Origin: Pseudomonadota bacterium
GTDB taxonomy: Bacteria; UBA10199; 2-02-FULL-44-16; JAAZCA01
Length of the DNA stretch: 50,319 nucleotides
Direction: 5' to 3'
Assembly: GCA_043798915.1 (NCBI GenBank)
Contig: JAZDOG010000012.1
Coordinates: 1-50,319 of the forward strand
In this document: in pieces, positions 23,276 to 50,319 of the stretch
Position numbering within the stretch: the stretch's first letter is position 1
How the letters are laid out: each line of letters starts with the position of its first letter
Notes under the pieces: generated by a model
Databases searched by the model: none
Told to the model about the DNA's origin: nothing
The model's input: only the letters and a program-made list of their open reading frames with translations
Made by a program: the position numbers and the translations under genes

Positions 23276-24127
23276 CTATACCGGGTCGCTGTGGACGGTG
23301 ACGTGGGCCCCGGGGATCTTGCGCTGGATATCCGCGATGATGGCCTCCGTTATGGCGTGGGCCGATTCGAACGTGGTATCGCTGTCCACCTCGAGATGAA
23401 ATTCTATGTACTTCTCGCCGCCCACCCGCCTTGTGCGGAGCCGGTGGTAGCCGCAGACGAGCGGTTTGCCGTTGATGCAGCTGTCTATTGCGGCGAGAGC
23501 CTCGGCGGGGAGCGTCTTGTCCATGAGCTGCGCGATCGAATCGTGCCCTATGCGGATCGCCGAGATGGCGATATAGAGGGAGATGAGGATCGAGATTATG
23601 GGGTCGGCGTTCTTCACCGCCGCGAAGCGCTCGAGCCCCAGGGCGACGAGCACCCCGATGTTCGTCCAGATATCGGCGCCGAAGTTCAAGGCGCTCGCCT
23701 CGATGGCGCTCGATTCGGTCTCGGAGCTCGCCCTCTTGAGCACCCGCACGAGAAAGACGCTCGCTATGATCGCCATGCACATGACCACGACGCCCACCAT
23801 CTCGTCGTTGAGACGATAGCCGTCGATCATCCGGTGGAAGGCCTGGACGATCAGGAATGTTGCGGATGCGGCGATGAATATCGCCTGAAAGAGCCCAGCT
23901 ATCGCCTCGGCCTTGCCGTGGCCGAACTGGTGCGCCTCGTCGGCCGGCTTCTCTGCGGTGTGGACCGCCGCGAGGTTTATCGACATCGAGAAGACATCCA
24001 TCAGGGAGTCGAGCGCGCTCGAGAGAACGGCCATGGACATGGTGAGGAACCCCACCGCCGACTTGATCGCGGCGAGAGAGAGAGCCACAAAAATTGCCGT
24101 CCACACCGCCCTTTTCTTGACCGACAT
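23276..24127 (-). CDS. Cation diffusion facilitator (FieF-like) transporter
   Basis: ALDSLMD, KPADEAHQFGHGKAE, DPII, HRLRTR, VTVHSDP. Confidence 0.9.
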   Translation of the reverse strand: MSVKKRAVWTAIFVALSLAAIKSAVGFLTMSMAVLSSALDSLMDVFSMSINLAAVHTAEKPADEAHQFGHGKAEAIAGLFQAIFIAASATFLIVQAFHRMIDGYRLNDEMVGVVVMCMAIIASVFLVRVLKRASSETESSAIEASALNFGADIWTNIGVLVALGLERFAAVKNADPIISILISLYIAISAIRIGHDSIAQLMDKTLPAEALAAIDSCINGKPLVCGYHRLRTRRVGGEKYIEFHLEVDSDTTFESAHAITEAIIADIQRKIPGAHVTVHSDPV

Positions 24128-24210
24128 GTATCGATTATCGGCGAAGGCTCAGGTAAAAAGCAAGCGGCACGATTAGTAAAATTGGAAAAGTGGCTTTTGG
24201 CGAGCAGGCA

Positions 24211-24426
24211 GGCGCAAATTTCCTCTCGGGGAGAGCCCCCTTGGGCAAGGCGCCTTCCCTTCGGCTACTCGTCGCGAAAAATCGGTTGGTTTCTGTAGCC
24301 TGGTGTCTTCCTGCTTGTCAGGCCCCAGGCTTACGAAACCAATCCGATTTTTCGCTCCTCATACGCCTCCGGTCAAAACGTCGCTTAATATGCCCAAGGG
24401 AGCTCTCCCCTGCGGAACTTTGCGCC
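24211..24426. repeat. ~216-nt nested imperfect foldback (REPIN/MITE-like or structured RNA)
   Basis: 24211-24247 pairs with 24391-24426; inner 24274-24303 pairs with 24325-24355. Confidence 0.8.
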
Positions 24427-24506
24427 AGCTCAAGTCAGCAGGTTAAAATGGTTACGCTCCGATTTAAACAGACTTCGCTGTACCACTGGTTCATGAATGA
24501 GGTGGG

Positions 24507-24529
24507 AAGGTGGTTTGACCGGTGGTTTA
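24507..24529. repeat. 23-bp direct repeat, copy 2
   Basis: AAGGTGGTTTGACCGGTGGTTTA; 22/23 identical to 17510-17532. Confidence 0.8.
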
Positions 24530-24532
24530 TAG

Positions 24533-24609
24533 AATCGTCAGACGGAGCAATTATTTAGCTTATAAATCATAGTATTAGGCCCAATCGTCAGTTGCTCCGT
24601 CTGACGATT
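24533..24609. repeat. Perfect 18-bp inverted repeat with 41-nt AT-rich spacer
   Basis: AATCGTCAGACGGAGCAA (24533-24550) / TTGCTCCGTCTGACGATT (24592-24609). Confidence 0.85.
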
Positions 24610-25129
24610 TTCGAATTGATGCGTCAGGATCGGATCAACATCTCGAACACCTGTTTCATAGGCGATCCCGACTGGGTCAAACAAGAATACGAGATACTTC
24701 GCGAAGAGATGAAGGCGCTGTTTGCAAGAAAAAGCACACAAAGAGAGTTGCTCTCTTCCAGCGACCCACCTTGATGTCGATAACCGTGGCAAAAAAATGA
24801 GCAAGCGGACCATTTGAAGGGATAGGTCTGTGAAAGATTGCAAGATTCGATGACAAATTTTGTCTTGTTCGTTCCTTCCTGAAAATCACCCCAGGGTTTT
24901 GACTCAAGGGCGCAATCAGTTCCAACGAAAATGGTTGATGTGGAGAAAAATCAGCGCCTCACTCTATCTCAACCCAAAATTGCTCCGTCAGGGGGTTTAG
25001 GGGGTTTAAGCCCCAAAAACTCTTGCCCAGCTCCCAACGCTACGCTATACGCCCTTATCATTTTTAAATAAGGCAGTATGGTCCCCGCGTCAGTAAGTTG
25101 CGAAACGCTCGTTCAAAATAATAAAACAA

Positions 25130-26200
25130 ATGGGACAATTTCATCTAAAAGGCTTAGATACTTATCGGGGTATAGCCGCCTTAACTGTTCTGCTTGGCCA
25201 TATTGAATTATTTAAAGGGAATTTCGGATATGACAATTGGTTAGACCTCCCATTCTATAAATACACAGGCGGGCATACAGCGGTTATCTTTTTTTTCGTT
25301 TTAAGCGGGTTTCTGATAACGCTGTTGCTCCTGAATGAGAAGAACAAATATCAAAAGATAAATTTAAAGAATTTTTATCTCCGGAGGATATTCAGGATAT
25401 GGCCATTGTATTATCTTATCATTCTCGTTTCTTATTTACTGACTGATTATTCACCATGCGCCGCGACCATAGTATTGTTTTTGACAATATTCCCCAACAT
25501 AGCCCATTCTATGGGGTCTGGATGGGTCCCAAGCCCGCAAATATGGTCGATAGGAGTTGAAGAACAATTTTACCTGGCCTGGCCGTTTCTGATCAAAAAA
25601 TGCAATGACATTTTTAACGTCGTGATTTTCATAATCATATTCTTCACAATATTGCCCCATGGGTTGCTATTTATATTGAACCGGATCTACCCTGACCCGA
25701 CTTTAATGTCGTTAATAAATAAACTGTTTTTTGGGACCAAATTTAATTGTCTGGCAATTGGCGGGCTGGCTGCAGTGATATATTCTGAAAAAAGACCAAT
25801 ATTGGGGCTGCTGAATCGGAATTTTATCATAAGTCATTTATTGGTCATCCTGCCTTTTATTTTATGGTTTGTCGGGTTTCATATTAAGTATTTTACAGAT
25901 GAATTATATTCATGCCTGTTTGCAATCTCGATTTTGATCATGACTTCCAATCCCAAAATCATCAATATTGATAGTTTTATATCTAAATATTTAGGGAAAA
26001 TATCGTACGGCATCTATATGTATCATTGGATCATTTTGGAGCTATTGTTTAGAAACAAAATATTAACCATAGAAAATAATTTACTATTTAATGTTTGCAT
26101 ATACGTCCTGGCAGTTGGGCTGACAATATTTATTTCCACCTTGTCATATTATTTTATTGAAGGTCCTTTTTTGAAACTAAAGGAAAAATACAGCAGATGA
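25130..26200 (+). CDS. Acyltransferase family 3 (OafA/YrhL-like) membrane O-acyltransferase
   Basis: LDTYRGIAA, FFVLSGFLIT, FYLRRIFRIWPLY, WSIGVEEQFYL, LGKISYGIYMYH, SYYFIE; strongly AT-rich. Confidence 0.9.
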   Translation: MGQFHLKGLDTYRGIAALTVLLGHIELFKGNFGYDNWLDLPFYKYTGGHTAVIFFFVLSGFLITLLLLNEKNKYQKINLKNFYLRRIFRIWPLYYLIILVSYLLTDYSPCAATIVLFLTIFPNIAHSMGSGWVPSPQIWSIGVEEQFYLAWPFLIKKCNDIFNVVIFIIIFFTILPHGLLFILNRIYPDPTLMSLINKLFFGTKFNCLAIGGLAAVIYSEKRPILGLLNRNFIISHLLVILPFILWFVGFHIKYFTDELYSCLFAISILIMTSNPKIINIDSFISKYLGKISYGIYMYHWIILELLFRNKILTIENNLLFNVCIYVLAVGLTIFISTLSYYFIEGPFLKLKEKYSR

Positions 26201-35610: not shown

Positions 35611-36753
35611 ATGAGGGCCTTCAAGTTCGGGCAGCTGCTGGCCAAAGAGGACATATGCGACCGGGACGAGGAGATAAGGCTCCTCAAAAGTATTTGCAAG
35701 ACCGGGGGTAGGGCGGTTGTTTATGGATCAAGGCGGTTCGGCAAGACATCCCTCGTCAAAAACGTCATCGTCCATGATTTTCTCCAGTCGGAAAAGAAAT
35801 CCCTGGCTGTATATGCCGATCTCTTTCAGCTCGATTCCATGCAGGATGCCTCCATGAGGTTTCAAACGGCGATCGAGCACGCCCTGAGCGAACAAGCGAA
35901 GGTGAAGAGCTTCTTAAACGCTATACGGAACTACATCAAACACTTCCGCATCGAAATCACCGCTGATCCGCTCTCTGGAGCGCCACAGGTGAACCTGTCC
36001 GGTGGCGTCAGCGGCAAGGAGGATAAAACCATCCACGAGCTGTTCGTTACCTTGAAGGCGATATCAGGCGATTACAAGACCCTCCTTGTCCTTGATGAAT
36101 TCCAGGACGTCGCCTGCATAGGCGGCCTTGAAGCGAAGCTGCGCTCGGAGATTCAGGCGTTATCCGACGCGGCTGTTATAGTGCTCGGTTCGAAGAGACA
36201 TCTGATGAAAACCATCTTTCATGAGGAATCGAGACCGTTTTATGGCTTCGGTGTGGATGTTGAAATTAGGAAAATAGAGCGAGGGCATTGGCTGCAATAC
36301 ATGAAGGAAAGGTTTGATAACTCAAAGCTCGTGATTGATAAACAAGGCGTTGATACGATCTGCAAACAAATGAGAGACGTCCCAAATTCGATCCAGGAAC
36401 TTTGCCAGTGGATATCGCTCAATGACGAACAAAGACATCTGGATACGTCGAGGATTATGAAACACCTCGCGGGCCTGATAGAGAACAAGTCAAGCCGATA
36501 CCTTGAAAGATTTACCTCATTTTCAGCCAAGGAGAAGGCGGTGCTGATTGCAGCCGCACGAATGGAGCCCGTGGCATCCATTGCATCCACGGCCTTCATT
36601 CATACGACCGGCATCAGCGCTACAGCTGCAAAGGCCGCCGTGCTGCGCTTTGCCGACCAGGGAGTTTTGGATCATTCGGAGGAAGGGTACGTGGTCACAG
36701 ATCCGCTATTCAGAATATTCCTGCAGCGACAGTTCATGCACGATACAGAATAG
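35611..36753 (+). CDS. Archaeal-type AAA ATPase with probable C-terminal wHTH
   Basis: ICDRDEE, Walker A GSRRFGKT, Walker B LDEFQ, LGSKRH, C-terminal DPLFRIFL. Confidence 0.8.
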   Translation: MRAFKFGQLLAKEDICDRDEEIRLLKSICKTGGRAVVYGSRRFGKTSLVKNVIVHDFLQSEKKSLAVYADLFQLDSMQDASMRFQTAIEHALSEQAKVKSFLNAIRNYIKHFRIEITADPLSGAPQVNLSGGVSGKEDKTIHELFVTLKAISGDYKTLLVLDEFQDVACIGGLEAKLRSEIQALSDAAVIVLGSKRHLMKTIFHEESRPFYGFGVDVEIRKIERGHWLQYMKERFDNSKLVIDKQGVDTICKQMRDVPNSIQELCQWISLNDEQRHLDTSRIMKHLAGLIENKSSRYLERFTSFSAKEKAVLIAAARMEPVASIASTAFIHTTGISATAAKAAVLRFADQGVLDHSEEGYVVTDPLFRIFLQRQFMHDTE

Positions 36754-36867
36754 CGGAACCCGACATCTAACCCAACTTGCGCAAACTCCGAAAAATTATA
36801 ACCTCGTTTCCCGCGCGATTTTTTTGAGCGGCTTTTTCTCTTCGTCCTTCTCAATTTATATTTCCAA

Positions 36868-38514
36868 TCAAAGAATCGCCTTCAAGTCCGCCTCCGCCGT
36901 TGTGATCGGCATTATATTGAATTTGTCGGCGAGCACCTTGAGCACCGCCGGGGTGATGAAGGCCGGCAGTGATGGGCCGATGCGCATGTTGCGAATGCCG
37001 AGGTGCAGGAGCGTGAGCAGTATGCAGACCGCCTTCTGCTCGTACCATGAGAGGACGAGCGAGAGCGGCAGGTCGTTCACGCCGACGCCGAAGGCCTTCG
37101 AGAGAGCCAGCGCGATCTGGATTGCGGAATAAGCGTCGTTGCACTGGCCGCAGTCGAGGAACCTCGGGATCCCGCCTATGTCGCCGAACTCCTCCTTATT
37201 GAAGCGATACTTCCCGCAGGCGAGCGTCAAGATGACGCAGTCTTCAGGAACCTTCTCCGCAAACTCCGTGTAATAGTTGCGCCCGCTCTTCGCGCCGTCG
37301 CATCCACCGATGAGGAAGAAGCGGCGGATCGCGCCTTTCTTTACCGCATCGACCACCTTGCCGGCCACGCCTATCACCGCGTTGCGCGCGAACCCGACGG
37401 TGGTTGTGCGGTCGGGGCCGTCCGCAGTGAATCCGGGCGCTGCGATGGCCGCCTCAATGACCGGCTCAAAATTGCGGTCGGCTATGTGCATCGTTCCCGG
37501 CCAGCCGACGAGCCCCGAGGTGAAGATTTGCCCTGCATATGAATCCTGAGGCTTCTGCAGGCAGTTGGTCGTCATCAGGATCGCCCCAGGAAAAGCTGCG
37601 AACTCCTTCTGCTGATCCTGCCACGCCCCCCCGTAGTTGCCTGCGAGGTGCCTGTATCTCTTGAGGTTCGGATATCCGTGCGCCGGCAGCATCTCGCCGT
37701 GCGTGTAGACGTTGATCCTGCGCCCCTCGGTCTGCCGAAGGAGCTCTTCGAAATCCTTGAGGTCGTGGCCAGAGACGAGTATCGCCTTGCCCTTCCGCGG
37801 CTCGATGCGCACGCTGGTTGGCACGGGATGGCCGTATGCGCCGGTGTTCGCGGCATCGAGCAGCTCCATGACGCGTAGGTTCACCTCGCCGCATCTCAGG
37901 TTCATCGCCAGGAGCTCGTCGGCCCCGTGATGACCCTCGGCGATGAAATTCAGCCCTTCGTGGAAGAATGCGTAGACCTTGTCATCCTCCTGACCGAGGA
38001 TCATGGCGTGGTCAGCGTATGCAGCCGTTCCCTTGAGGCCATAGGCGAGGAGTTCCTCCAGCCCAGCGATGTCCGGTCCCAGCGCCTCGATCCTTTTCTT
38101 TACGCCGACCTCCAGGCCCTGGCTGATGAGCGCGTCCTTTCCGGATGCAGGGACCCATGCAGCGGGCCCCGCGAGGCGCTCTGGCACATTCCCGGCCTTC
38201 GTGCAGGCACCCTCGTAGAGCTTGCGGGCAAGGGTATGAGCGGCAGCCAAACGGCCAAGCAGCGCCACATAGCGCTCGGGGTCGAAGTTGACGTTGGTCA
38301 TGGTCGTGAACAGGGCCTCCATGACGGCGATGTCGACCTCGCGGTCCAGGGCAGCCAGCTTGCGCGCGCGGTGGGCATACATAGCCACGCCCTTGGCTGC
38401 ATGCATCGTGATGTCGATGAGAGCGCTGACCTCCGGGCTCTTCCCGCACACGCCGTGGACGGTGCAGCCCGTACCCTTTGCCGTCTGCTCGCACTGATAA
38501 CAGAACATGTTCAT
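36868..38514 (-). CDS. hcp: Hybrid cluster protein (hydroxylamine reductase)
   Basis: MFCYQCEQTAKGTGC..GVCGK, SGHDL, YTHGEMLPAHGYP, TTNC, GGCDG, GQCND, SWYEQKAV. Confidence 0.97.
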   Translation of the reverse strand: MNMFCYQCEQTAKGTGCTVHGVCGKSPEVSALIDITMHAAKGVAMYAHRARKLAALDREVDIAVMEALFTTMTNVNFDPERYVALLGRLAAAHTLARKLYEGACTKAGNVPERLAGPAAWVPASGKDALISQGLEVGVKKRIEALGPDIAGLEELLAYGLKGTAAYADHAMILGQEDDKVYAFFHEGLNFIAEGHHGADELLAMNLRCGEVNLRVMELLDAANTGAYGHPVPTSVRIEPRKGKAILVSGHDLKDFEELLRQTEGRRINVYTHGEMLPAHGYPNLKRYRHLAGNYGGAWQDQQKEFAAFPGAILMTTNCLQKPQDSYAGQIFTSGLVGWPGTMHIADRNFEPVIEAAIAAPGFTADGPDRTTTVGFARNAVIGVAGKVVDAVKKGAIRRFFLIGGCDGAKSGRNYYTEFAEKVPEDCVILTLACGKYRFNKEEFGDIGGIPRFLDCGQCNDAYSAIQIALALSKAFGVGVNDLPLSLVLSWYEQKAVCILLTLLHLGIRNMRIGPSLPAFITPAVLKVLADKFNIMPITTAEADLKAIL

Positions 38515-38874: not shown

Positions 38875-40566
<1,692 letters not shown>

Positions 40567-40588
40567 AACTTGCCTCCAGCATATAATT

Positions 40589-41185
40589 CTATCGCTTGGT
40601 AGTAAAGTCAGATCTGGCCATTACCCTTGCCTGCAACTCTTTGAATTGTTGATACTTCTTCGTTGGTTTGCCCCTGTAATAGGGGGTTTTGATATCTTTC
40701 AGTAATTTTTCCATGGCTTGGTAATCTTTAAGATTTTCCAAGAGTACGTTTTCTGGCCTGCGCCTGTTCTTGTTTCTCGATGCATAGGTCAAGTTGTGGC
40801 AATGACGGCAGGCGAAAATACCATCCTTCATAAAAAGCGAGGCCACACGTCTTCGGCACATGACGCCATCTTTTTGCGCAGGGCAGTGGAACCACCATCG
40901 ACTTCCTCCCTTGCGGCATGGTGTTGTACTAACGGGAATTGCATAACAGTATTTTTTAGCGCCTGTTACCAAGTCCGCCAGTTCGTATTGCAGCCCGCAA
41001 AACAGCTCCCCATTTTTCACAAATATTGAAATATCAACGGCCAGCACTTCTCCTAAAAAATAGTTTCGCCATCGCAATGTGCTGGGGGTTATTCCAACCA
41101 GCCATCCACGACTTGTTAAATCGTAAATTGAAAGTTGGTTTAACTGCTCAACCTCGGTCTTTTTGGGTCTTTCTGTCATGATCAC
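40589..41185 (-). CDS. Hypothetical element protein with Cys-rich Zn-finger-like region
   Basis: GGSRWWFHCP..CRRRV..FACRHCHNLTYAS; co-oriented upstream of the LSR. Confidence 0.7.
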   Translation of the reverse strand: MIMTERPKKTEVEQLNQLSIYDLTSRGWLVGITPSTLRWRNYFLGEVLAVDISIFVKNGELFCGLQYELADLVTGAKKYCYAIPVSTTPCRKGGSRWWFHCPAQKDGVMCRRRVASLFMKDGIFACRHCHNLTYASRNKNRRRPENVLLENLKDYQAMEKLLKDIKTPYYRGKPTKKYQQFKELQARVMARSDFTTKR

Positions 41186-41273
41186 TTTCCTCCTTTGCCG
41201 AAATCATTTGAGATTTTTTTTCGCTGTTTCCAATGTAGCATTGGCGAAAACGCCCATTCTGTTCGTTACCGCT

Positions 41274-42533
41274 TTACCCCACCCCGCTTCTCACTATTGT
41301 TTTAGGTTTTGCGGAGGTGGGGTAGATCAGCATCTTTCTTTTATCGTTCGCGTCCGGCTCTTGCGAGATCAGCCCTGCCGTCTCCAGCATAGGAATTATT
41401 TGCTGGCGAAGTTTGGTCGTATCGACCATTCGGCCATAGGCTTCATAATGTTTTTGTGCGATGTCTTGACGTGCAATTCCTGCCCCGCCGTTATCCTCCC
41501 ATGCGCCAAGAATAACGTCTTTATAGAGTTCGTAGATATATGGAGGGATGTTTAATTCCTGACTGGCCGATATCTTTTCCCAAACATCAAACGCCTCGTC
41601 GATATCGGCTTCATTGGCGGTTATTGTTGATTCGTCTCTTTCACGCCACCAGAGGTTGAGGAGTGCAAAACATTTGATAAGCGCTGTGACCCTCTTGATA
41701 TCCCGTTGATGCCTCGGCTTTAATTTTTCCCGTCCATCAAAAAACCGCCTCTCAACTTTATTGAAGAATCCTATTTTGATTTCCTGAATATCCTCGGCCC
41801 TGATTGCCTTTATTCGGTCTATGAGAAGGTTTCTTTTCTCATCCTTCTGCAAAATGGCGTTGTACTGTTCCCGATCCGATTCCTTTCTCAATGTATTCAA
41901 AATGCCTTCACGAATCTTCTCCTGATTTATTTCAGGGCTGAGTAAGAGAAATCGCGTGGCCTCTTGTTCATCGATGCGAAGTCCAGCCGTGCAAAATATA
42001 ACCGACGGGTATCCCCTGATAAGAATATTCTTTGTCCGAAGCCCCTGTTTCTGAGATTTGTCGGTAATCTTGAGATTGATCTCCTTTTTGTCGTGAGAGA
42101 GGAGCGGCCTAAGCCTTGCCAACAGGTCGTTGTGCGGCTGATCCAGAAAGACAAGAATCTTATGTGAGAGATCTATGCGGTATCCCTTCAGTTCCTTGTT
42201 GTATTCACCAACGTCGTGAAAGAAAGCCGTAGGACTGCAATAGGCAAGTTCGATCACATCCTCTTGCGGAAAGAGTTTTGCGATTTCCGTTGGGATATAG
42301 CTCTTACCGGTGGATGACGGGGCATTGAAGCTAACGTTGAACTGGGCGTTCTCTGTATATGCAGAGAGTTCACACAAAAACGTGACGACCTTGTTTTCCT
42401 CGTCCCTTTTGATCGTGAGCCCCAAGACATCGGTCAAATCCTTGCCGGACATCGGTTTGAGGCGCGAGGTATCGATACGTTCCGAATGTATCCTCAAAAA
42501 CCGTTCAAAGTCTTTAGTCGTTGTCGTTTCCAT
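41274..42533 (-). CDS. P-loop ATPase (helicase/primase-associated-like) with C-terminal wHTH
   Basis: Walker A APSSTGKS, FLDQ, TRFLLL (Arg finger-like), C-terminal LETAGLISQE..DKRKMLI. Confidence 0.7.
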   Translation of the reverse strand: METTTTKDFERFLRIHSERIDTSRLKPMSGKDLTDVLGLTIKRDEENKVVTFLCELSAYTENAQFNVSFNAPSSTGKSYIPTEIAKLFPQEDVIELAYCSPTAFFHDVGEYNKELKGYRIDLSHKILVFLDQPHNDLLARLRPLLSHDKKEINLKITDKSQKQGLRTKNILIRGYPSVIFCTAGLRIDEQEATRFLLLSPEINQEKIREGILNTLRKESDREQYNAILQKDEKRNLLIDRIKAIRAEDIQEIKIGFFNKVERRFFDGREKLKPRHQRDIKRVTALIKCFALLNLWWRERDESTITANEADIDEAFDVWEKISASQELNIPPYIYELYKDVILGAWEDNGGAGIARQDIAQKHYEAYGRMVDTTKLRQQIIPMLETAGLISQEPDANDKRKMLIYPTSAKPKTIVRSGVG

Positions 42534-42711
42534 CTTGAATCCTCCGTTCATTACTTTTTTCCATTACGCTTTTTGACGGCGGCCTGCAGATCGCCTTCAT
42601 CAGGATCACGAGTTTTGAGCCAAGTTCATACGCCTCTTTCTCATCGATCATTTTTCCAAACCGGCGTTCATAGAGAGCCTGAAATTTGGCGACCTGTTCA
42701 CTAGTCAGCAT
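42514..42711 (-). CDS. Small hypothetical protein (MLTSEQVAKFQALYERRFG...)
   Basis: Overlap-coupled to both neighbours; resembles a small protein recalled from CPR-type elements. Confidence 0.65.
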   Translation of the reverse strand: MLTSEQVAKFQALYERRFGKMIDEKEAYELGSKLVILMKAICRPPSKSVMEKSNERRIQDGNDND

Positions 42712-43006
42712 CGGCACCGCCTTTCCGATGCTGCGAACCATGAAGCTTGCTCATGATCTCTGCGATCTTTGACAAAACGGCCTCTTCGATCTTTTGGCCG
42801 ATTTCTTTTTTGATGGGATGAAAGACGTCAAAACTGCGATTGCCTGTTTTCTTGGTTGGATATGTGATCCTGTAACCGGTCCCGTCTAATCTCTGGTGGA
42901 TGCCGATGGAGCTGAGATAAATTTGTCCATCCAATACGACGCTGGCAAACCCCACGAGCCCGTCACAGGGTTTTATCAACTGGATATTGACCTCACTTAC
43001 AATCAT
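42701..43006 (-). CDS. SpoVG-like nucleic-acid-binding protein
   Basis: MIVSEVNI..GLVGFASVVLDG..IGIH..ITYP..DVFHPI..IEEAVL matches the SpoVG pattern. Confidence 0.7.
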   Translation of the reverse strand: MIVSEVNIQLIKPCDGLVGFASVVLDGQIYLSSIGIHQRLDGTGYRITYPTKKTGNRSFDVFHPIKKEIGQKIEEAVLSKIAEIMSKLHGSQHRKGGADAD

Positions 43007-43183
43007 AGCCTCTTTCCATCCGTTAAGTGCGGCGACAATATCCGCACATAGGTATATACAGTTGGAACGAAAACTAAGGCTAAGTTCGAATCTGAAAAAA
43101 GTGGTGATTAAAGAGGTGGACAAGCTAAACTGCTGTTTAATAAGAATATATTGATTGAAGTTTGTGCTGGCCTAATTTGGTCT

Positions 43184-43250
43184 TTGACAAAATGTTCACG
43201 AAAACATAGGATGTTCACGAATCGTGAACGTGAGGTGATTTCGTGAACAA
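43184..43250 (+). promoter_or_regulatory. Sigma70 promoter with four GTTCACGA operator half-sites
   Basis: TTGACA (43184-89), 17 bp, TAGGAT (43207-12); ATGTTCACGAA x2, palindrome GTTCACGA-A-TCGTGAAC, TTCGTGAAC over the start codon. Confidence 0.75.
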
Positions 43251-43890
43251 ATTAGACCCAACAACTCTGTTCCCTACCGAAGATCGCGTCTGGATGGCGA
43301 TCCTCCTCCTGAATTACAAGGACAAGGTCTTCACGGTACGTGACTTTTCCAACTTGAGCGGCCTGAGTCTTGGCTTCATCTCACAATTCAGTAATCTGCT
43401 AAAGGAAGCCGGTTACATGGCCGAAGGTCGAAAGATGAAGCTCAAGGATCCGGGGGCCTTGCTCAATATTCTCCGAGACATCTATTTTTTTGAAAAGCAC
43501 GAGCGTCATTCTTACTACATTGACTTACAACCTGAAGAAACGATCCAAAAGATTTGCAAAACTGGCAACGAGCGAATCTACGCCCTAACCAGAATGGCTG
43601 GTGCGTCCAAAATTGCCCCCTTTGTACGTTTTGAGCTGGTCGATTTTTATATCTCCTCCGTAGAAGAGATTGCGCTGTGGAAAGAGAAACTCGAATTAAT
43701 TGACGTGGAACTGAGCGGCAACATCAACCTGTTTGTTCCAAGTGACAAAAGAATCTTAACGGATGTGCAAACCGTGGATGGAATTAAAATCGTCAACAAC
43801 ATTCAGCTCTATCTCGATCTCTATAAATATCCGGCACGAGGTCGCGAGCAAGCGGAACACTTACGGGAGCAAAAGATTAAGATATGGTGA
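43243..43890 (+). CDS. AbiEi-like type IV TA antitoxin (N-terminal wHTH)
   Basis: HTH-like VRDFSNLSGLSLGFIS; C-terminal IQLYLDLY..PARGREQAEHL; overlaps the NTase gene. Confidence 0.7.
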   Translation: MNKLDPTTLFPTEDRVWMAILLLNYKDKVFTVRDFSNLSGLSLGFISQFSNLLKEAGYMAEGRKMKLKDPGALLNILRDIYFFEKHERHSYYIDLQPEETIQKICKTGNERIYALTRMAGASKIAPFVRFELVDFYISSVEEIALWKEKLELIDVELSGNINLFVPSDKRILTDVQTVDGIKIVNNIQLYLDLYKYPARGREQAEHLREQKIKIW

Positions 43891-44738
43891 GATACGCGAC
43901 TCATTTTGAAGAGAATGAAGCAACCCGTTCTCAAGCAGTATTGCTGGAGATCATGACCATTTTGGGTTCCTATCGGGAATACATCTATCTCGTTGGGGGG
44001 TGGGCTCCATATTTTCTTCTCAAATTATTTCAAAAACCGGAGGATAAATTTGAGCATGTTGGCTCGATTGATATCGATCTTGTCATCGATTTCTCACAAA
44101 TTGAAGAGCCCCAATACCAGACGATTGTGAATCTCCTTTTGAAAAGAGAGTATGAGCAACGCCTAGACAAACTGGGTCGTATCATCCCCTTTGCGTTTCA
44201 GCGACAATACAAAGGAGTGGATATTCAAATTGACTTTCTTGCTGGCGAATACGGCGGCACTGGGAAAAAACATCGACACCAAAGGATTCAAGACGATCTC
44301 TTGGCCCGGAAGGCAAGAGGAACGGACATCTTGCCACAGCACCATATTGCGTTCGACTTAAACGGAACACTTCCCGATGGGGCTCTGAACACCTGTAAGA
44401 TAAAAGTTGCCAACGTCGTTTCTGCGCTGACGATGAAAGGCATCACCATCTCGGAGCGATACAAAGAAAAAGATGCCTATGACATATACTCCCTGATCGC
44501 CCATTACAAAGAAGGCAGTTTGTCCGTTTTGCAAGAAGTCAAAGAACATTTGGCGAATGGTTTGGTTCGTGAAGGAATGCGCGGGCTTGTCCAAAAATTT
44601 GAAGCAGAGAGATCTCCCGGCCCCACATGGGCTGCCAAGTTCATGGAACCCAAAAATGAAAACGAGGCCGCTCTGAGACAGGCAGAGATTTATAACAGCG
44701 TCAGGCTTTTTGTGGAGGGGATTGGAAAGTTGTTGTAA
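43884..44738 (+). CDS. AbiEii/MenT-like nucleotidyltransferase toxin
   Basis: Pol-beta NTase motifs LVGGWA, GSIDIDL, IDFL, MKG..KEKDAYD. Confidence 0.75.
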   Translation: MVRYATHFEENEATRSQAVLLEIMTILGSYREYIYLVGGWAPYFLLKLFQKPEDKFEHVGSIDIDLVIDFSQIEEPQYQTIVNLLLKREYEQRLDKLGRIIPFAFQRQYKGVDIQIDFLAGEYGGTGKKHRHQRIQDDLLARKARGTDILPQHHIAFDLNGTLPDGALNTCKIKVANVVSALTMKGITISERYKEKDAYDIYSLIAHYKEGSLSVLQEVKEHLANGLVREGMRGLVQKFEAERSPGPTWAAKFMEPKNENEAALRQAEIYNSVRLFVEGIGKLL

Positions 44739-44746
44739 AGGAAACT

Positions 44747-45400
44747 ATGAACACCAATGACCTGATCAAGTCAAAACAGCGCATCACCGACCACGGGGAG
44801 GTCTTCACCCCCGCATGGATGGTTGAGGCTATGATTAATCTCGTGAAGGACGAGACCGAGCGCATCGACTCGCGCTTTCTTGAGCCGGCGTGCGGGAGCG
44901 GCAACTTCCTCGTGCGAATTCTTCAGCGCAAACTCGCCGCTGTTGAAATCAAGTTCGGTAAATCCGATTTTGAAAAACGGCACTATGCGCTTCTCGCACT
45001 CATGTGCATTTATGGGATTGAGCTTCTGCCGGACAACATTGCTGAATGCCGCACGAATCTGTTGGAGATCTTTGCCTCGTATCTGAACCTCGATCAATCG
45101 GAAGAGCTGTATCGCGCCGCGTTCTTCGTGCTTTCGCAAAATCTCGTCCGCGGCGATGCATTGACGATGCGCACGCATGACGATCTACCAATCACCTTCG
45201 CCGAGTGGGGGTATCTGGGTAAGGGCAGGTTTCAGCGACGAGACTTCCGCTTCGACAGTCTCGCCCAGTCATCGGCTTTCAGCGCCGAGGGGACACTCTT
45301 CGCTCATCTCGGAAGACACGAGATTTTCAAGCCTGCAAAGACCTATCCACCCATGACGGTGAATGATCTGGCCACAGTTGCAAAGGAGACAGCCCAATGA
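44747..45400 (+). CDS. Short N6-MTase-fold protein (SAM-binding part only)
   Basis: HGEVFTP, FLEPACGSGNFL, IYGIEL, GDAL; no NPPY. Confidence 0.8.
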   Translation: MNTNDLIKSKQRITDHGEVFTPAWMVEAMINLVKDETERIDSRFLEPACGSGNFLVRILQRKLAAVEIKFGKSDFEKRHYALLALMCIYGIELLPDNIAECRTNLLEIFASYLNLDQSEELYRAAFFVLSQNLVRGDALTMRTHDDLPITFAEWGYLGKGRFQRRDFRFDSLAQSSAFSAEGTLFAHLGRHEIFKPAKTYPPMTVNDLATVAKETAQ

Positions 45401-46995
45401 GCGCACAGGCCAACTTTACATTGCGCGGACGCAACCCGGACGTTCTGACGTGTATCGCGAACCTCTCCAACGACGAAGTGTTCACACCTCCCGAGTTCGC
45501 AAACCGGATGCTGGACACGCTGGCCGAGGCGTGGGCCGCCAGCCACGGCGGTGCGAATCTTTGGGCCGACAAGACTGTGAAGTTCCTCGACCCTTGCACA
45601 AAATCCGGCGTGTTCCTTCGTGAGATCACCAGCCGCCTCACCAAGGGACTGGAGAAGGAGATTCCGGAACTTAAGAAGCGCGTGAACCATATCCTGACCC
45701 AGCAGGTTTTCGGCATCGGTATCACGCAGATCACGAGCCTGCTGGCGCGGCGCAGCGTTTATTGCTCCAAGCACGCCAAAGGCGAGCACTCCATCGCCAA
45801 ATCGTTCGCCAGTGATGATGGAAATATCTGGTTCAAACGCATCGAACACACTTGGAATGGCGACAGATGCGAGTATTGTGGCGCTGGAAAATCCGTTTTT
45901 GACCGGGCACCGGGGCTTGAAACTCACGCCTACGCGTTCATTCACACCGATAATGTCAAAGCTCGGCTCGCCGAGATTTTTGGAGGCAACATGCAATTCG
46001 ACGTAATCATTGGCAACCCACCGTATCAGATGGATGACGGCGGCGTCGGCGGCGCTATGCCGTTGTATCAGAAGTTTGTCCAGTCTGCGAAAGCCCTTCA
46101 ACCTCGATTCTTGAGTATGGTTACGCCGTCTCGCTGGTTTGCTGGGGGCCGCGGGCTCGACAAATACCGCGAGGAAATGCTCGGCGACAAGCATCTGCGA
46201 GTACTCGTCGACTGGCCGAAGGCAGACGAAGTTTTTCCTGGCGTACTGATTGGTGGGGGAGTTTCCTATTTCCTTTGGGACTCGAACTACAATGGGCAAT
46301 GCTTAGTAACCGTCGTTCGCAATGGCGAGGAGTCTCAGAGCCTGCGCGACCTCAACCAACATGACATTTTTATTCGCAGCAATGAGGCCCTTCCGATCCT
46401 TGAAAAAGTGCTGGAGAAATCCTCCGGAGAGTATTTCTCCTCCCTGATGAGTGGACCAGACCCATTTGGATTCCGGTCAAACTTCGAAGGGTATCACGAC
46501 AAGCCGCAGAGAGGTGACCTTCTGCTCCATTACAACGCCGGCGGCCGTGGCGCAGTGCGCGCGATTGGCTATGTCTCGAAAGAAGAGGTAACACGCAACT
46601 GTCAAATGGTTGGCAAGTGGAAGCTAATGTTGAACCGTGTCTACAACGTTGCTGAGAAGTACCCGCACCGCATCATTGGTGCCCCCGCTCTGCTTCCACC
46701 CAATGAAATTTGCACCGGCTCCTTTCTCGTAGCTGGCCCATTTTCAACCAAAGCGGAAGCCGAAAGCGCCAAGAGCTATTACGAAACAAAGTTTTTCCGG
46801 TTCTTACTGCATCTTCGGAAGATCAACCAAGATGCCGCGAGGCATTCGTATCAATGGGTTCCAGTTCAAGCGTGGGATCGGCAGTGGACTGATCGAGACC
46901 TTTACAAAAAATACAAGCTCACGAAGGGGGAGATTGATTACATCGAGTTGGTCATTCGCCCAATAGATATCAATGGAGATTCTGAAGATGAGTAA
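45397..46995 (+). CDS. Eco57I-like adenine methyltransferase with C-terminal target-recognition region
   Basis: EVFTPP, degenerate motif I FLDPCTKSGVF, FDVIIGNPPY, TPSRW. Confidence 0.85.
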   Translation: MSAQANFTLRGRNPDVLTCIANLSNDEVFTPPEFANRMLDTLAEAWAASHGGANLWADKTVKFLDPCTKSGVFLREITSRLTKGLEKEIPELKKRVNHILTQQVFGIGITQITSLLARRSVYCSKHAKGEHSIAKSFASDDGNIWFKRIEHTWNGDRCEYCGAGKSVFDRAPGLETHAYAFIHTDNVKARLAEIFGGNMQFDVIIGNPPYQMDDGGVGGAMPLYQKFVQSAKALQPRFLSMVTPSRWFAGGRGLDKYREEMLGDKHLRVLVDWPKADEVFPGVLIGGGVSYFLWDSNYNGQCLVTVVRNGEESQSLRDLNQHDIFIRSNEALPILEKVLEKSSGEYFSSLMSGPDPFGFRSNFEGYHDKPQRGDLLLHYNAGGRGAVRAIGYVSKEEVTRNCQMVGKWKLMLNRVYNVAEKYPHRIIGAPALLPPNEICTGSFLVAGPFSTKAEAESAKSYYETKFFRFLLHLRKINQDAARHSYQWVPVQAWDRQWTDRDLYKKYKLTKGEIDYIELVIRPIDINGDSEDE

Positions 46996-49528
46996 GACCA
47001 TCGAAGAAATCCTTACACCCAAACCGGAGTCCCGACCGCGCATCTACGCCTACTCAATTGATGACAAGGCGCACGCGGGCCTCCTCAAGGTGGGACAGAC
47101 CACGCGTGATGTGAAGCAACGTGTTGCCGAGCAACTTAAGACCGCCAATATCAAGAACTACAGTATTCTGCTGGATGAGGTCGCCGAACGTGACGATGGG
47201 ACAACCTTTACCGATCACGACGTGCGCGCCGCGCTCATTAAAAAGAAATTCGAAAACACGGAATTGGAATGGATGCGCTGCAAGCTCAGGGATGTGAGGA
47301 CCGTTCTCAGCGAGTTGCGCACCGGGCAGCGGTTCATCGGCACGCACTCCGAGACGTTTACGATGCGCCGAGAGCAGGTCGAGGCCGTGAACAAGACCTG
47401 CGACTACTTCCGCTCCATCTGGGCCGAGGGGAAGAGAGTCGTCCCGCGCTTTCTGTGGAACGCAAAGATGCGTTTCGGCAAGACCTTCGCCACGTATCAG
47501 CTCGCCAAGAAACTCGGGGCGAAGCGCGTGCTCGTGGTTACCTTTAAGCCCGCCGTGGAGGATGCCTGGCAGACAGACCTCGAATCACACGTGGACTTCG
47601 ACGGTTGGCAATATCTCTCGCGCAATTCTAGCAGCGATCCAACGAGAGTCTCCACCAAGAAACCACTGGTTTATTTCGGTTCGTTTCAGGACCTGCTGGG
47701 ACGGGACGACGCAGGCAACATCAAGGCCAAGAACGAATGGCTTCACACGGTGAACTGGGATTTGGTCGTCTTCGACGAATATCACTTCGGCGCATGGCGT
47801 GAGACGGCCAAGGAATTGTTCGAGGGCGAGGAAGAGGCGGTTGCCAAGAAGGAGACCAAGCTCGAATACGCTGCCGGCTTGGAGGACGTCAACGAGGACT
47901 TGACCGAACTTTCGGCCAAGGAGAGCGAGTTCCTGCCCATCACTACCAAGGCTTACCTGTATCTCTCCGGCACGCCGTTCCGTGCGCTGGCAACGGGCGA
48001 GTTCATCGAGGAAGCGATCTTCAACTGGACCTACACGGATGAACAACGCGCCAAGGAAGAGTTTGCACAGAAGAATCCATGCAAGTGGAATCCTTACGGC
48101 GCGCTGCCGCAGATGCGGCTGCTCACCTACCAGATGCCCGACGAGTTGGTGGCAATTGCGAGCGCCGGGGAGTTTGATGAGTTTGATCTGAACGCATTTT
48201 TCGAGGCCACCGGCACAGGCGTGCTTGCGCAGTTCAAACACAAAAGCGACGTGCAGAAGTGGCTGGACATCATCCGCGGTGGCTATGCGCCCAAGGCGGC
48301 CGAGTATCTCAAGACCGGCACGCGCCCACCGTTCCCATATTCGGACGTGCGCCTACTGCCCTATCTCCAACACTCGTTCTGGTTTCTGCCCAACGTCGCG
48401 GCGTGTCACGCGATGGCGAATCTGTTGGCCGAGAAGCAAAACGTCTTCTGGCATGACTACGATGCAGTTGTCGCCGCAGGCAGCTCGGCCGGTATCGGGT
48501 TGGACGCGCTACCGCCCGTGCGCGAGGCCATCGGCAGTGGCTTCGACAACAAGACCATCACGCTGTCGTGCGGCAAGCTCACCACCGGCGTTACGGTGCC
48601 GCAGTGGTCTTCGATTTTGATGTTGCGCAATCTAAAATCTCCGGAAACCTATTTTCAGTCGGCGTTTCGCGTGCAATCGCCGTGGTCCATCAAAAATCCC
48701 AACGGCAACGACCCGAACGAGGAGGAAATCCTCAAACCGGTCTGTTTCGTTTTCGATTTTGCACCTACGCGAGCACTGCGACAGCTCTCCGAATACGGGA
48801 TCGGGCTTTCACCCAACGAGAAGAACCCAGAGAACGCTGTTAAGGACCTTGTATCGTTTCTGCCAGTGCTGGCCTACGACGGTGCGAATATGACGCAGAT
48901 TGACGCAGGCGGCATTCTTGACATCGCGATGGCTGGCACCTCGGCCACGTTGCTCGCAAAGAAGTGGCAAAGTGCAATTTTGGTGAACGTGGACAACGAC
49001 ACTCTGCGCCGCATCCTAGAGAACCCAGAGGCGATGGCTGCCGTTGAGCGCATTGAGGGCTGGCGTTCGCTTGGCGACAACATCATTGAGACGATCATCA
49101 ACAAGAGCGAGAAGGTAAAGGAGCTGAAGAACAAGGCTAAGGATCGGGACCTGACGGAGAAGCAGAAAAAGCAGCTCACCGAGGAGGAGAAGGAATTCAA
49201 GTCCAAGCGAAAGCTCGTGCAGGAAAAGCTTATCAAGTTTGCAACCCGCATTCCGGCCTTTATGTATTTGACCGATTTTCGGGAGAACACGCTGCAGGAT
49301 GTGATTACGAAAATTGAGCCGGACTTGTTCGAGACGGTCACAGGTCTGACGGTGAAGGATTTCCACCTGCTCGTGAGGCTCAAGGTCTTCAACACAGAAC
49401 AAATGAATCAGGCCGTCTTCGCCTTCCGCCGCTATGAGGATGCCTCGCTCCGCTACACGGGGATCGAGAGTCACGAGGGTCTGACACACTATGGGCTCTA
49501 CGATACTGTAGTGGCGAGGGAAGAATGA
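46988..49528 (+). CDS. GIY-YIG/T5orf172-like nuclease fused to SF2 helicase (restriction subunit)
   Basis: IYAYS..LKVGQTTR..RVAEQ; NAKMRFGKT, DEYH, LSGTP, QSAFRVQ. Confidence 0.85.
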   Translation: MSKTIEEILTPKPESRPRIYAYSIDDKAHAGLLKVGQTTRDVKQRVAEQLKTANIKNYSILLDEVAERDDGTTFTDHDVRAALIKKKFENTELEWMRCKLRDVRTVLSELRTGQRFIGTHSETFTMRREQVEAVNKTCDYFRSIWAEGKRVVPRFLWNAKMRFGKTFATYQLAKKLGAKRVLVVTFKPAVEDAWQTDLESHVDFDGWQYLSRNSSSDPTRVSTKKPLVYFGSFQDLLGRDDAGNIKAKNEWLHTVNWDLVVFDEYHFGAWRETAKELFEGEEEAVAKKETKLEYAAGLEDVNEDLTELSAKESEFLPITTKAYLYLSGTPFRALATGEFIEEAIFNWTYTDEQRAKEEFAQKNPCKWNPYGALPQMRLLTYQMPDELVAIASAGEFDEFDLNAFFEATGTGVLAQFKHKSDVQKWLDIIRGGYAPKAAEYLKTGTRPPFPYSDVRLLPYLQHSFWFLPNVAACHAMANLLAEKQNVFWHDYDAVVAAGSSAGIGLDALPPVREAIGSGFDNKTITLSCGKLTTGVTVPQWSSILMLRNLKSPETYFQSAFRVQSPWSIKNPNGNDPNEEEILKPVCFVFDFAPTRALRQLSEYGIGLSPNEKNPENAVKDLVSFLPVLAYDGANMTQIDAGGILDIAMAGTSATLLAKKWQSAILVNVDNDTLRRILENPEAMAAVERIEGWRSLGDNIIETIINKSEKVKELKNKAKDRDLTEKQKKQLTEEEKEFKSKRKLVQEKLIKFATRIPAFMYLTDFRENTLQDVITKIEPDLFETVTGLTVKDFHLLVRLKVFNTEQMNQAVFAFRRYEDASLRYTGIESHEGLTHYGLYDTVVAREE

Positions 49529-49595
49529 CAAAATTATTAAGGATACACTTACGTCTGGTCAAATAAGAAATTGAAATTGTGGAGAGGGATAAATC

Positions 49596-50210
49596 ATGAG
49601 TAAGCATCTCTGCCCTGAGAAAGGTCAGAAAAAAATTAAAGTGTTGGGTGATTATAAAAAGGTTGGGTCAAAATTTATTCCGCCGTTTTCTCATCAGCTC
49701 GGGCCAATAAAGGGTTCAAGTTATGGACGCCAAACCTTACCAGAATTGATTTGGTGGGATGTTATCATAGATAAAAAATCACATAAGTTTGCAGTGGATT
49801 TGGCGGCTGCCATAGCAACTCATTTCAAGGAGCGTAATAAAACACATGTGTGGTGGGGGTTCACATCCGAATATTACCAATTAAACAATTCGGAATTTGA
49901 CGATCTTAAAACATATTTGCACGAACGCCGCATGTTATTACCGCTACAAGATGCCGCCGCAGATTTCTTGGAATTGTATCCAGAATGCCCCCTTGCAAGA
50001 ATTCTTGATTCTCATCCATCCGGTGCCATTGATATAGCCTATTTATCCCGATTTGAGAAGCGAATGGCTGAGGCTGAGGACAAACGTTCACGTGCTGGAG
50101 TCCTAATCCAAAGCCAAGTCGTCTATATGGGATTTGTTATAGGGAAATTACATGTCAAAGAAGGGTTGGGCCTAGCTAATTTAGTGCCCGTCGGGAAACT
50201 CAGGCCGTGA
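49596..50210 (+). CDS. Hypothetical AT-rich protein, probably 3'-interrupted
   Basis: 204-aa ORF whose last codons run into an IS-like terminal sequence at 50184. Confidence 0.55.
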   Translation: MSKHLCPEKGQKKIKVLGDYKKVGSKFIPPFSHQLGPIKGSSYGRQTLPELIWWDVIIDKKSHKFAVDLAAAIATHFKERNKTHVWWGFTSEYYQLNNSEFDDLKTYLHERRMLLPLQDAAADFLELYPECPLARILDSHPSGAIDIAYLSRFEKRMAEAEDKRSRAGVLIQSQVVYMGFVIGKLHVKEGLGLANLVPVGKLRP

Positions 50211-50319
50211 AAACCAGCACGTCACGGCGCGTATTTTCATTTCCTGGCACGGTTGCCTCTGGCTTGCATATCTGATTTTCCCGCCTCCACTGTTTCTTTC
50301 TCTGCATTTTCTTCATGTC
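50184..50319. mobile_element. Possible IS5/IS1182-like insertion sequence end
   Basis: TTA|GTGCCCGTCGGGAAACTC resembles IS5/IS1182 terminal IRs; composition shifts here; transposase not in window. Confidence 0.35.

Follow-up and report, generated by a model that had tools for sequence, protein, structure and literature searches.

A probably self-replicating integrative element with a large serine recombinase and an MCM-like helicase at tRNA-Ser(GGA), from a family commonest in CPR-labelled genomes

Here we describe a putative integrative element located at the end of a tRNA-Ser(GGA) gene in the draft genome of a bacterium deposited under Pseudomonadota. The window analysed, 50,319 nt in length, is one entire contig (JAZDOG010000012.1, designated C103) of this genome (G000; 105 contigs, 2.34 Mb). 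Five intact open reading frames (ORFs) occupy positions 38875-43006 of its minus strand, with overlaps of 8 and 38 nt followed by gaps of 88 and 22 nt. The operon begins with a SpoVG-like gene (42701-43006; Pfam SpoVG) and continues with the gene of a small helical protein of 64 aa (42514-42708), whose ORF overlaps both flanking genes, the gene of a 425-aa ATPase (41274-42551), to which fold searches assign an MCM-like AAA+ helicase core and a C-terminal winged helix, the gene of a 198-aa Zn-ribbon protein (40589-41185) and, directly downstream of the latter, the gene of a large serine recombinase (LSR; 38875-40566), 563 aa in its integrated form. An earlier note on this DNA, made from the sequence alone, had drawn its interval (40589-43006) around the first four genes, with the LSR just outside, and had described five closely spaced, co-oriented genes divergent from a set of defence genes, a layout that the intact minus-strand ORFs bear out. 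We consider it probable that these five genes are the backbone of a small, probably self-replicating integrative element, of the same general kind as the staphylococcal cassette chromosome (SCC), the tycheposons and P4.

The integration target, tRNA-Ser(GGA) (38895-38982, plus strand; ARAGORN), is intact after integration and is the sole copy among the 47 tRNAs of the genome. At this tRNA the G+C content falls from ~0.60 to ~0.46, and the lower value persists through to the contig end. The host genome is 97% complete, with an estimated contamination of 3.26%. Its dnaG and rpoD genes both lie on C103, and the full-length RpoD is nearest to that of metagenome-assembled genomes (MAGs) labelled as Pseudomonadota or Deltaproteobacteria bacterium; given also the genome size and completeness, the host lies outside the Candidate Phyla Radiation (CPR; Patescibacteria), as the earlier note had held.

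The other end of the island lies on a second contig of the same genome, C104, since C104:140-357 is 80% identical to the far end of a related element (L004). An insertion sequence (IS) end at 50179-50319 (plus strand) is the reverse complement of C104:1-141, and 139 nt of it recur at C80:28199-28337, where the IS end is followed by a DUF772 transposase gene (Pfam), the IS on this contig being at C80:28199-29835. As this end is repeated on the window, C104 and C80, at least one IS copy interrupts the island and broke the assembly. Of the three genomic contexts of the IS end, two face each other across the island, implying two inverted copies or very long terminal repeats. Past the junction, C104 encodes ArfB (RF-1 domain). 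In G013, a genome of the same family as the host, TadA, tRNA-Ser(CGA), tRNA-Ser(GGA) and ArfB follow one another, with arfB starting 7 nt after the tRNA, and the G013 ArfB is 68% identical to the C104 copy. Judged by this comparison, the tRNA-Ser(GGA)-arfB junction of G013 is the empty site, and the island sits between the tRNA and arfB. The match of both flanks, on C103 and C104, to an uninterrupted locus also upholds the description of the element as tRNA-integrating and not the product of a chimeric contig. Furthermore, the assembly contigs overlap by 141 nt, more than the 88 nt of the tRNA, so the shared tRNA alone would not have been able to join two genomes. The sequencing runs available for comparison were assembled contigs from other samples; at most 27% of the words sampled were present in any of them, which shows that the source sample was not included. 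Contigs from four of these runs cover the backbone genes at 90-99% identity.

To place the operon among its relatives, one genome per species was scanned for 185,579 species, and 150 stretches were found to encode a relative of the ATPase; the best 80 of these form the set of 80 loci used below. Searches with the window proteins (tblastn) found the LSR in 49 of them; the counts for the Zn-ribbon, small and SpoVG-like proteins were 40, 33 and 4, respectively, with order and strand constant. The recurring order is small protein, primase-helicase, Zn-ribbon protein and LSR, and its constancy across the fetched loci argues that the arrangement is not due to chance. Capsid, relaxase and type IV secretion system (T4SS) families gave no match among the island ORFs scanned (11 against Pfam, 7 against PHROGs), in keeping with the earlier statement that no such genes were in view, and the only PHROG family matched by those 7 ORFs was an integrase.

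The integrase in question is the LSR (E 2.7e-71), which also matches PF00239 (Resolvase, the N-terminal catalytic domain; E 1.8e-18, residues 10-154) and, C-terminal to it, PF07508 (Recombinase; E 7.7e-8) and PF13408 (Zn_ribbon_recom, a zinc beta-ribbon; E 1.4e-11); its residues R14, K15 and S16, the last being the catalytic serine, are invariant in 28 aligned sequences. The attL core, CCGC, lies at 38977-38980, at the extreme 3' end of the tRNA, with its attR counterpart at about C104:349-352 and the crossover placed inside the core. Only 4-9 nt are common to attL and attR in the five elements compared (4 nt in G000 and 7-9 nt in G001, L001, L041 and L058), always at the extreme 3' end of a tRNA. 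An attR in the form of a displaced tRNA fragment was sought in 27 loci and found in none of them within 12 kb. In four relatives both ends lie on a single contig, and these elements are 7.2, 9.4, 10.2 and 14.1 kb long. A profile of the far-end block (nhmmer) was matched only in L001, L032, L041 and, weakly, L058, and a motif-guided search delimited no further element convincingly. At L001:427-460, 1 kb past the element end, there is a degenerate second copy of the att core and of the start of the LSR tail, which looks like the trace of an earlier element at this site.

The position of the core has a bearing on the recombinase itself. In the integrated form, LSR residues beyond ~530 are read from the antisense strand of the host tRNA. 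When the element ends are joined in silico, the LSR frame runs on into a conserved tail, giving a protein of 554 aa in G000, G001 and L001 that ends …(A)TVDDVRT.I….G.IFIP.LAA; L041 and L058 have related VDDV(R/G)T tails. In G000 the native last 24 codons are found at the far end of the island, on C104, where the tail is intact and conserved. The reading frames thus joined indicate that the LSR gene spans attP and that integration exchanges its last 24 codons. Among the closest 120 database LSR clusters, two have the circle-type tail and 40 were flagged by pattern search as having tRNA-antisense tails, while many of the remaining 76, inspected by eye, also end inside an antisense-tRNA stretch. 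The 49 loci with an LSR comprise 39 that could be assessed and 10 that could not; an antisense tRNA 3' end lies inside the end of the LSR ORF in 30 of the 39, with 13 anticodon types represented, and in another three a group I intron occupies the tRNA position and was taken to mark an intron-bearing tRNA. Such introns (Rfam RF00028, 51-98 bits) were seen on the minus strand directly after the LSR stop at L001:11623-11885, L002:11691-11932 and L008:12557-12858; ARAGORN reports no tRNA at these spots, where the target is probably an intron-containing tRNA gene.

The ATPase has no Pfam or NCBIfam family match, and a phmmer search against PDB sequences returned chance-level rows only. Its AlphaFold model begins at the AAA+ core and has a predicted local distance difference test score (pLDDT) of 66. 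With this model as query, all Foldseek rows listed at E<=1e-3 were MCM chains (24 matches, E down to 7.8e-5), and in an independent structural search of 48,161 chains with VIA-align the top 11 belonged to the MCM family (Z 12.3-15.2 over 246-282 residues), with BchI and RavA next. The latter search also matched residues 333-415 to winged-helix domains. The protein has the AAA+ core fold of the MCM proteins and lacks both Pfam MCM membership and the N-terminal OB/Zn domain; on the strength of the model it is MCM-like in fold and outside the MCM family by sequence. It is a candidate replicative helicase and a candidate replication initiator, and it keeps the Walker A GKS, an invariant position.

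At least 3,015 relatives of the ATPase were scored, at 64-77% identity, and the best 120 fall into 78 of 705-744 aa and 42 of less than 620 aa. The three long relatives scanned (P0001, P0036 and P0067) carry N-terminal Toprim_2 and related domains, and P0001 (732 aa) matches the NCBIfam dnaG domain (E 1.4e-13). Residues 1-15 of the window ATPase align with residues 1-15 of P0001, after which the alignment resumes at P0001 residue 299. At the DNA level, identity to L001 is 84% over 50 nt around the start (8 nt upstream and 42 nt of the gene itself), ~850 nt are absent and the remainder shows 72% identity. By these alignments, the window copy has undergone an in-frame deletion of the Zn-finger/Toprim (DnaG-type) part, ~284 codons, with the start codon kept; the Toprim domain that precedes the helicase in the scanned long relatives is the part removed. 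The short forms in L004 and L009 have N-termini that differ from that of the window, so primase-less forms arose more than once. The P-loop ATPase of the earlier note is thus an MCM-like replicative helicase, normally fused to a Toprim primase, and the backbone goes beyond integration.

A 23-nt motif, TACCCCAC-N7-CTCACTAT, is present as an exact copy at 41275-41297 (plus strand), overlapping the last 7 codons and the stop of the helicase gene, and a second copy in G000 lies at C104:142-164. In a set of 106 loci that includes some places more than once, 40 have an exact match, and with up to 2 mismatches it the motif is found at the helicase stop codon in 52 of the 80 loci. It is often paired, the copies being 40-42 nt apart and either inverted or direct, and it recurs near the far end in L001, L032, L041 and G001 as well as on C104. 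By analogy with SaPI Rep, SCC Cch2 and the ori/crr of P4, which are taken up below, we propose that it is a candidate origin iteron, marking the replication origin of the element.

The remaining backbone genes are less uniform. The SpoVG-like, nucleic-acid-binding protein covers 79 of 82 positions of the Pfam SpoVG profile with 39.2 bits (cut-off 29.6; E 7.5e-10) but scores below the NCBIfam NF009749 equivalog cut-off (30.5 versus 108 bits), and by these profiles it is best described as a distant paralogue in a mobile-element context. Its gene is restricted to a single clade, being carried besides the window by L001, L004, L009, L070, G055 and G039. CPR-labelled elements begin instead with a DUF5659 gene, detected by Pfam in three elements and by tblastn in 53 of the 80 loci; set against the four loci with the SpoVG-like gene at the same position, this count contradicts the idea that the latter is part of a CPR-type backbone. 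A profile-profile comparison of the SpoVG-like protein with DUF5659 gave a probability of 0.6%, detecting no homology. The 64-aa helical protein (MLTSEQ...) is conserved across the family (tblastn, alignment), has no Pfam match and returned nothing under E 0.6 in a profile search of the PDB. The Zn-ribbon protein has five invariant cysteines in the alignment (C90, C101, C110, C126 and C129) and a model with pLDDT 87. It matched no Pfam, PHROG, NCBIfam or PADLOC family and no PDB sequence, Foldseek returned nothing under E 0.1, a wide structural search matched only its C-terminal helical hairpin (Z <=7.6), and in the protein atlas it falls only into clusters of hypothetical proteins. Its gene is absent from L001, L009 and a metagenome contig 92% identical to the window, so it is dispensable in some copies; in 25 of the 80 loci, an extra gene of ~200 aa stands between the helicase and Zn-ribbon genes. 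A predicted complex of the Zn-ribbon protein with LSR residues 150-530 scored 0.16 against a mark of 0.32, which counts neither for nor against binding.

By record title, 43 of the 80 loci are CPR, 3 are DPANN archaea (short contigs), 10 belong to other named phyla, 14 are unlabelled and 10 are 'uncultured Gammaproteobacteria'. Nine of the genomes with the last label were checked and measure just 0.8-1.4 Mb, and for this reason we distrust the label. The share of CPR titles, with which the ATPase and LSR searches concur, bears out the statement in the earlier note that this LSR type, the small protein and the APSSTGKS ATPase are common in Patescibacteria. On the helicase tree the CPR label is scattered, with 25 changes against a shuffled mean of 26.7, and the window forms a clade with L001, L004 and L009 (support of 99 in the Shimodaira-Hasegawa-like approximate likelihood ratio test, SH-aLRT, a quick method). 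The helicase occurs in only 1 of 22 genomes of the host order, G000 itself, and in the host's phylum in the Genome Taxonomy Database (GTDB), which consists of one class, a match was found in 5 of 93 genomes: G000, G092 (L001), G091 (L004), G055 and G039. G055 has the complete SpoVG-type backbone with an LSR 82% identical to that of the window, and G039 has a remnant (L104; G039:C64:1-2643) in which the SpoVG-like gene and part of the small gene survive and helicase residues 31-95 run directly into LSR residues 381-557. The host RpoD shares 66-67% identity with those of the L001 and L004 genomes; the genomes of L009, L015 and L007 match it only over the conserved C-terminal part. The closest relatives therefore belong to the phylum of the host, in which the element is sporadic. 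A recent import from CPR is not supported, and neither, as a recent event, is the exchange between CPR episymbionts and hosts that the earlier note had entertained. That note had also named best hits from the host lineage as the result that would count against its proposal, and here the outcome is divided, the closest clade being in the host phylum and the family as a whole mostly CPR-labelled. The family is very large, commonest in CPR-labelled genomes and apparently undescribed: no description of it was found in the literature searched, to which subscription journals and preprint supplements did not belong. No relative was found among the 2.9 million contigs of IMG/VR.

These features suggest the following life cycle. 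Excision would circularise the element, and the LSR would then take the 554-aa form with the conserved tail. The helicase would bind the 23-nt motif at the 3' end of its own gene and near attP, and the motif would serve as an origin in the manner of the iterons of SaPI (Staphylococcus aureus pathogenicity island) Rep or phage P4 alpha, so that the circle could be maintained or amplified. Where the primase is missing, as in the window copy, the host would have to supply priming. The other three proteins, namely the small helical, Zn-ribbon and SpoVG-like ones, may be accessory DNA-binding or regulatory factors, one of which may set the direction of recombination. The element carries variable cargo, here of the AbiE-like and restriction-modification types.

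Several known systems combine some of these properties. SCC integrates at the 3' end of rlmH, not at tRNAs, and we know of no SCC recombinase gene that spans attSCC. As described in one study (PMC7581432), SCC and SCCmec carry an LSR beside an initiator-helicase operon with the MCM-like Cch and an iteron origin bound by the C-terminal domain of the helicase; their cargo varies, genes for conjugation or capsids are lacking, and it has been proposed that they replicate once excised. In that study, SaPI Rep and SCC Cch2 are both described as binding iterons next to their own genes through a C-terminal domain (PMC7581432). The island resembles SCC in its LSR and MCM-like helicase, its candidate iteron origin, its variable cargo and the lack of any conjugation or capsid gene seen. 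It differs in its target, a tRNA; in its LSR, which scores far below the Ccr cut-offs (CcrB 82, CcrC 68 and CcrA 35 bits, with cut-offs of 700-900 and CcrB at 900); and in the primase of the family, which is Toprim-type and fused to the helicase where that of SCC is CCPol-MP. The tycheposons of Prochlorococcus and other marine bacteria are small, tRNA-integrating elements with a recombinase, a primase/helicase and cargo that includes defence genes, each integrase clade having its own tRNA target; 910 of 937 use tyrosine recombinases, the partial-tRNA repeats are ~40 nt, and MCM is not mentioned in the text consulted (10.1101/2020.12.28.424599). The island shares with them tRNA integration, a site-specific recombinase, a replication gene and defence cargo, and is unlike them in using an LSR, in its 4-9 nt core at the very end of the tRNA and in its gene families.

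P4 and the SaPIs have helicases of the SF3/D5 type and tyrosine recombinases as integrases, and P4 has repeats (ori/crr) in two places, one at or immediately behind the rep gene and the other far from it. Like P4 alpha and SaPI Rep, the family combines primase, helicase and a (here putative) C-terminal origin-binding domain in one protein, with repeats at the rep gene; unlike the island, for which PHROG and IMG/VR searches gave no such sign, P4 and the SaPIs are packaged by helper phages. In archaeal viruses of the SSV1 type, attP lies inside the recombinase gene and integration alters the gene. The island shares this location of attP, but the tyrosine recombinase gene of SSV1 is split into two non-functional parts, whereas the island LSR swaps its last 24 codons and its catalytic and DNA-binding domains stay intact. 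The actinomycete elements pSAM2 and SLP1 are conjugative, with tyrosine integrases and a rolling-circle Rep. They measure 10-17 kb, are integrated at tRNAs and replicate after excision (PMC2440964). The island is likewise tRNA-integrated, with post-excision replication proposed for it, and is unlike them in that Pfam found no transfer gene in the scanned island elements.

A number of observations weigh against the interpretation of the five genes as the backbone of a self-replicating integrative element. Excision, replication and transfer are predicted only, and the window copy, having no primase and containing an IS, may be immobile. The helicase model is middling in quality and has no Pfam family behind it. 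Judged from the window only, the 23-nt motif lacks significance, with one match where at least one was found in 17 of 100 shuffles (<=3 mismatches), and its support comes from cross-locus conservation only, which may be partly at the protein level given the overlap with coding sequence. The far end was located in just five elements, the profile search having missed the other loci, and 6 of the 39 assessable LSR loci have no tRNA. No contig from the four other-sample runs bridges the tRNA/att junction. Finally, many cargo ORFs are without annotation and could hide packaging or transfer functions.

This last point is shared by a reading in which the element is a phage satellite similar to P4 or the phage-inducible chromosomal islands (PICIs), packaged with the aid of a helper and using its primase-helicase and iterons for helper-induced replication. 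The size of 7-14 kb would suit a satellite, as would a rep gene with 3'-end repeats, described for SaPIs (PMC7581432), and defence cargo, reported for P4-like satellites (PMC9122126). Yet no terminase small subunit, capsid, portal or capsid-remodelling family was found by Pfam in the ORFs of six elements, and the absence of relatives from IMG/VR and of PHROG matches other than the integrase points the same way, so that we regard a satellite as distinctly unlikely. Somewhat unlikely, in our estimate, is that the window copy is a decaying, immobile remnant retained for its defence cargo. The in-frame loss of the primase domain, the IS inserted between cargo and far end, the decayed relative in G039 with its fused helicase and LSR fragments, and the degenerate second att copy in L001 are all compatible with decay; but no ORF of the backbone is interrupted, the catalytic S16 and the GKS of Walker A are retained, the LSR tail on C104 is intact and conserved, and primase-less forms are common among the best relatives (42 of 120).

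The two remaining alternatives concern the origin of the DNA. That the contig is an assembly or binning chimera, in which a CPR element was joined to the host at a conserved tRNA, might be suggested by the G+C drop at the tRNA, the estimated contamination of the genome and the predominance of CPR labels in the family; we hold it to be extremely improbable, for the flanks on C103 and C104 reproduce the tRNA-Ser-arfB locus of G013, the contig overlaps are longer than the tRNA, as reasoned above, and three more genomes of the same phylum have the SpoVG-type backbone. Recent acquisition from a CPR episymbiont living on the host is likewise very unlikely. The scatter of labels over the helicase tree, the near-identical proteins under different phylum labels and the rarity of the element in the host order would fit such a transfer, yet the window belongs to a distinct clade of good support, shared with genomes of the host phylum whose RpoD is 66-67% identical to that of the host, this clade has a gene of its own, the SpoVG-like gene in place of DUF5659, the helicase is only 55-70% identical to CPR-labelled copies, and many of the record labels are doubtful, as the small 'Gammaproteobacteria' genomes illustrate.

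If the window does hold the backbone of a self-replicating integrative element, its interest lies in part in the fact that the mobile elements of CPR/Patescibacteria are poorly known, while this backbone is abundant. It would supply CPR, and the little-studied phylum whose members are labelled 'Deltaproteobacteria', with a means of carrying defence genes and other cargo. Further leads are bacterial MCM-like helicases fused to DnaG-type primases, a candidate origin motif conserved across phyla, serine integrases that target the 3'-terminal bases of no fewer than 13 different tRNAs and are relevant to the discovery of genome-engineering enzymes, and a recombinase whose C-terminus depends on its integration state. 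A much bolder combination of claims, which we offer tentatively and judge unlikely to hold as a whole, is that the family is a major, unnamed class of self-replicating CPR elements moving between distant phyla, that the LSR gene with its internal attP acts as a switch, and that the LSR clades amount to a natural library of enzymes, each recognising a different tRNA 3' end. In that event the circle enzyme (VDDVRT tail) and the chromosome enzyme (antisense-tRNA tail) would differ so as to bias integration over excision, without or alongside a directionality factor.

The cargo of the island occupies 43243-50210 on the plus strand (Pfam, NCBIfam and PADLOC scans) and comprises a gene for a 215-aa protein followed by one for an AbiEii-domain protein, together with genes for a methyltransferase fragment, for an Eco57I-type methyltransferase and for a T5orf172+ResIII helicase-nuclease, and a 204-aa ORF. 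It is separated from the backbone by a divergent intergenic region (43007-43242) in which GTTCACG/CGTGAAC words recur and one sigma-70-like match points towards the cargo. These words, both inverted and direct, extend over 43180-43260 just upstream of the first cargo gene, in what looks like the operator of an AbiE-like pair. The AbiEii domain scores 27.6 bits against a Pfam cut-off of 22.5; the upstream 215-aa ORF, in the AbiEi position, has no Pfam, NCBIfam or PADLOC match, and no PADLOC model matches the AbiEii protein either. The window methyltransferases are of the Eco57I/MmeI type. At 44747-46995, the start of the full Eco57I-type methyltransferase is overlapped over 4 nt by the methyltransferase fragment, which is N-terminal, 217 aa long and similar to the N-terminus of the full enzyme, suggesting a duplicated or broken start. 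Cargo in other elements includes type I restriction-modification with RhuM, a Ser/Thr kinase with an ECF sigma factor, an NHL propeller, a LexA-like protein with an Eco57I methyltransferase, and unannotated ORFs. The proposal of a defence-carrying class of elements consequently fits the window, with its AbiE-like and restriction-modification genes, but not every member of the family. In the cargo of one CPR-labelled element there is a LOOT RNA (Rfam RF03000, 83.8 bits; L025:5249-5369, minus strand).

Additional features were noted elsewhere in the window. At 24000-26200 the G+C content drops to 0.38-0.50 around two ORFs (24538-24843 and 25130-26200) without a family match, which may be a small insertion. 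At 35611-38514, between tRNA-Ser(CGA) and tRNA-Ser(GGA), lie an ATPase_2/AAA_14 gene and hcp; as the two tRNAs are only 33-276 nt apart in the relatives G013, G009 and G017, this pair looks like an older insertion at the same tRNA cluster. Distant from the island, at 987-2875 and in a stretch of lower G+C (0.51), there is an ATPase of 418 aa with a match to MAD3, a MADS defence protein (E 1.6e-34, under the curated cut-off), which suggests a second defence locus.

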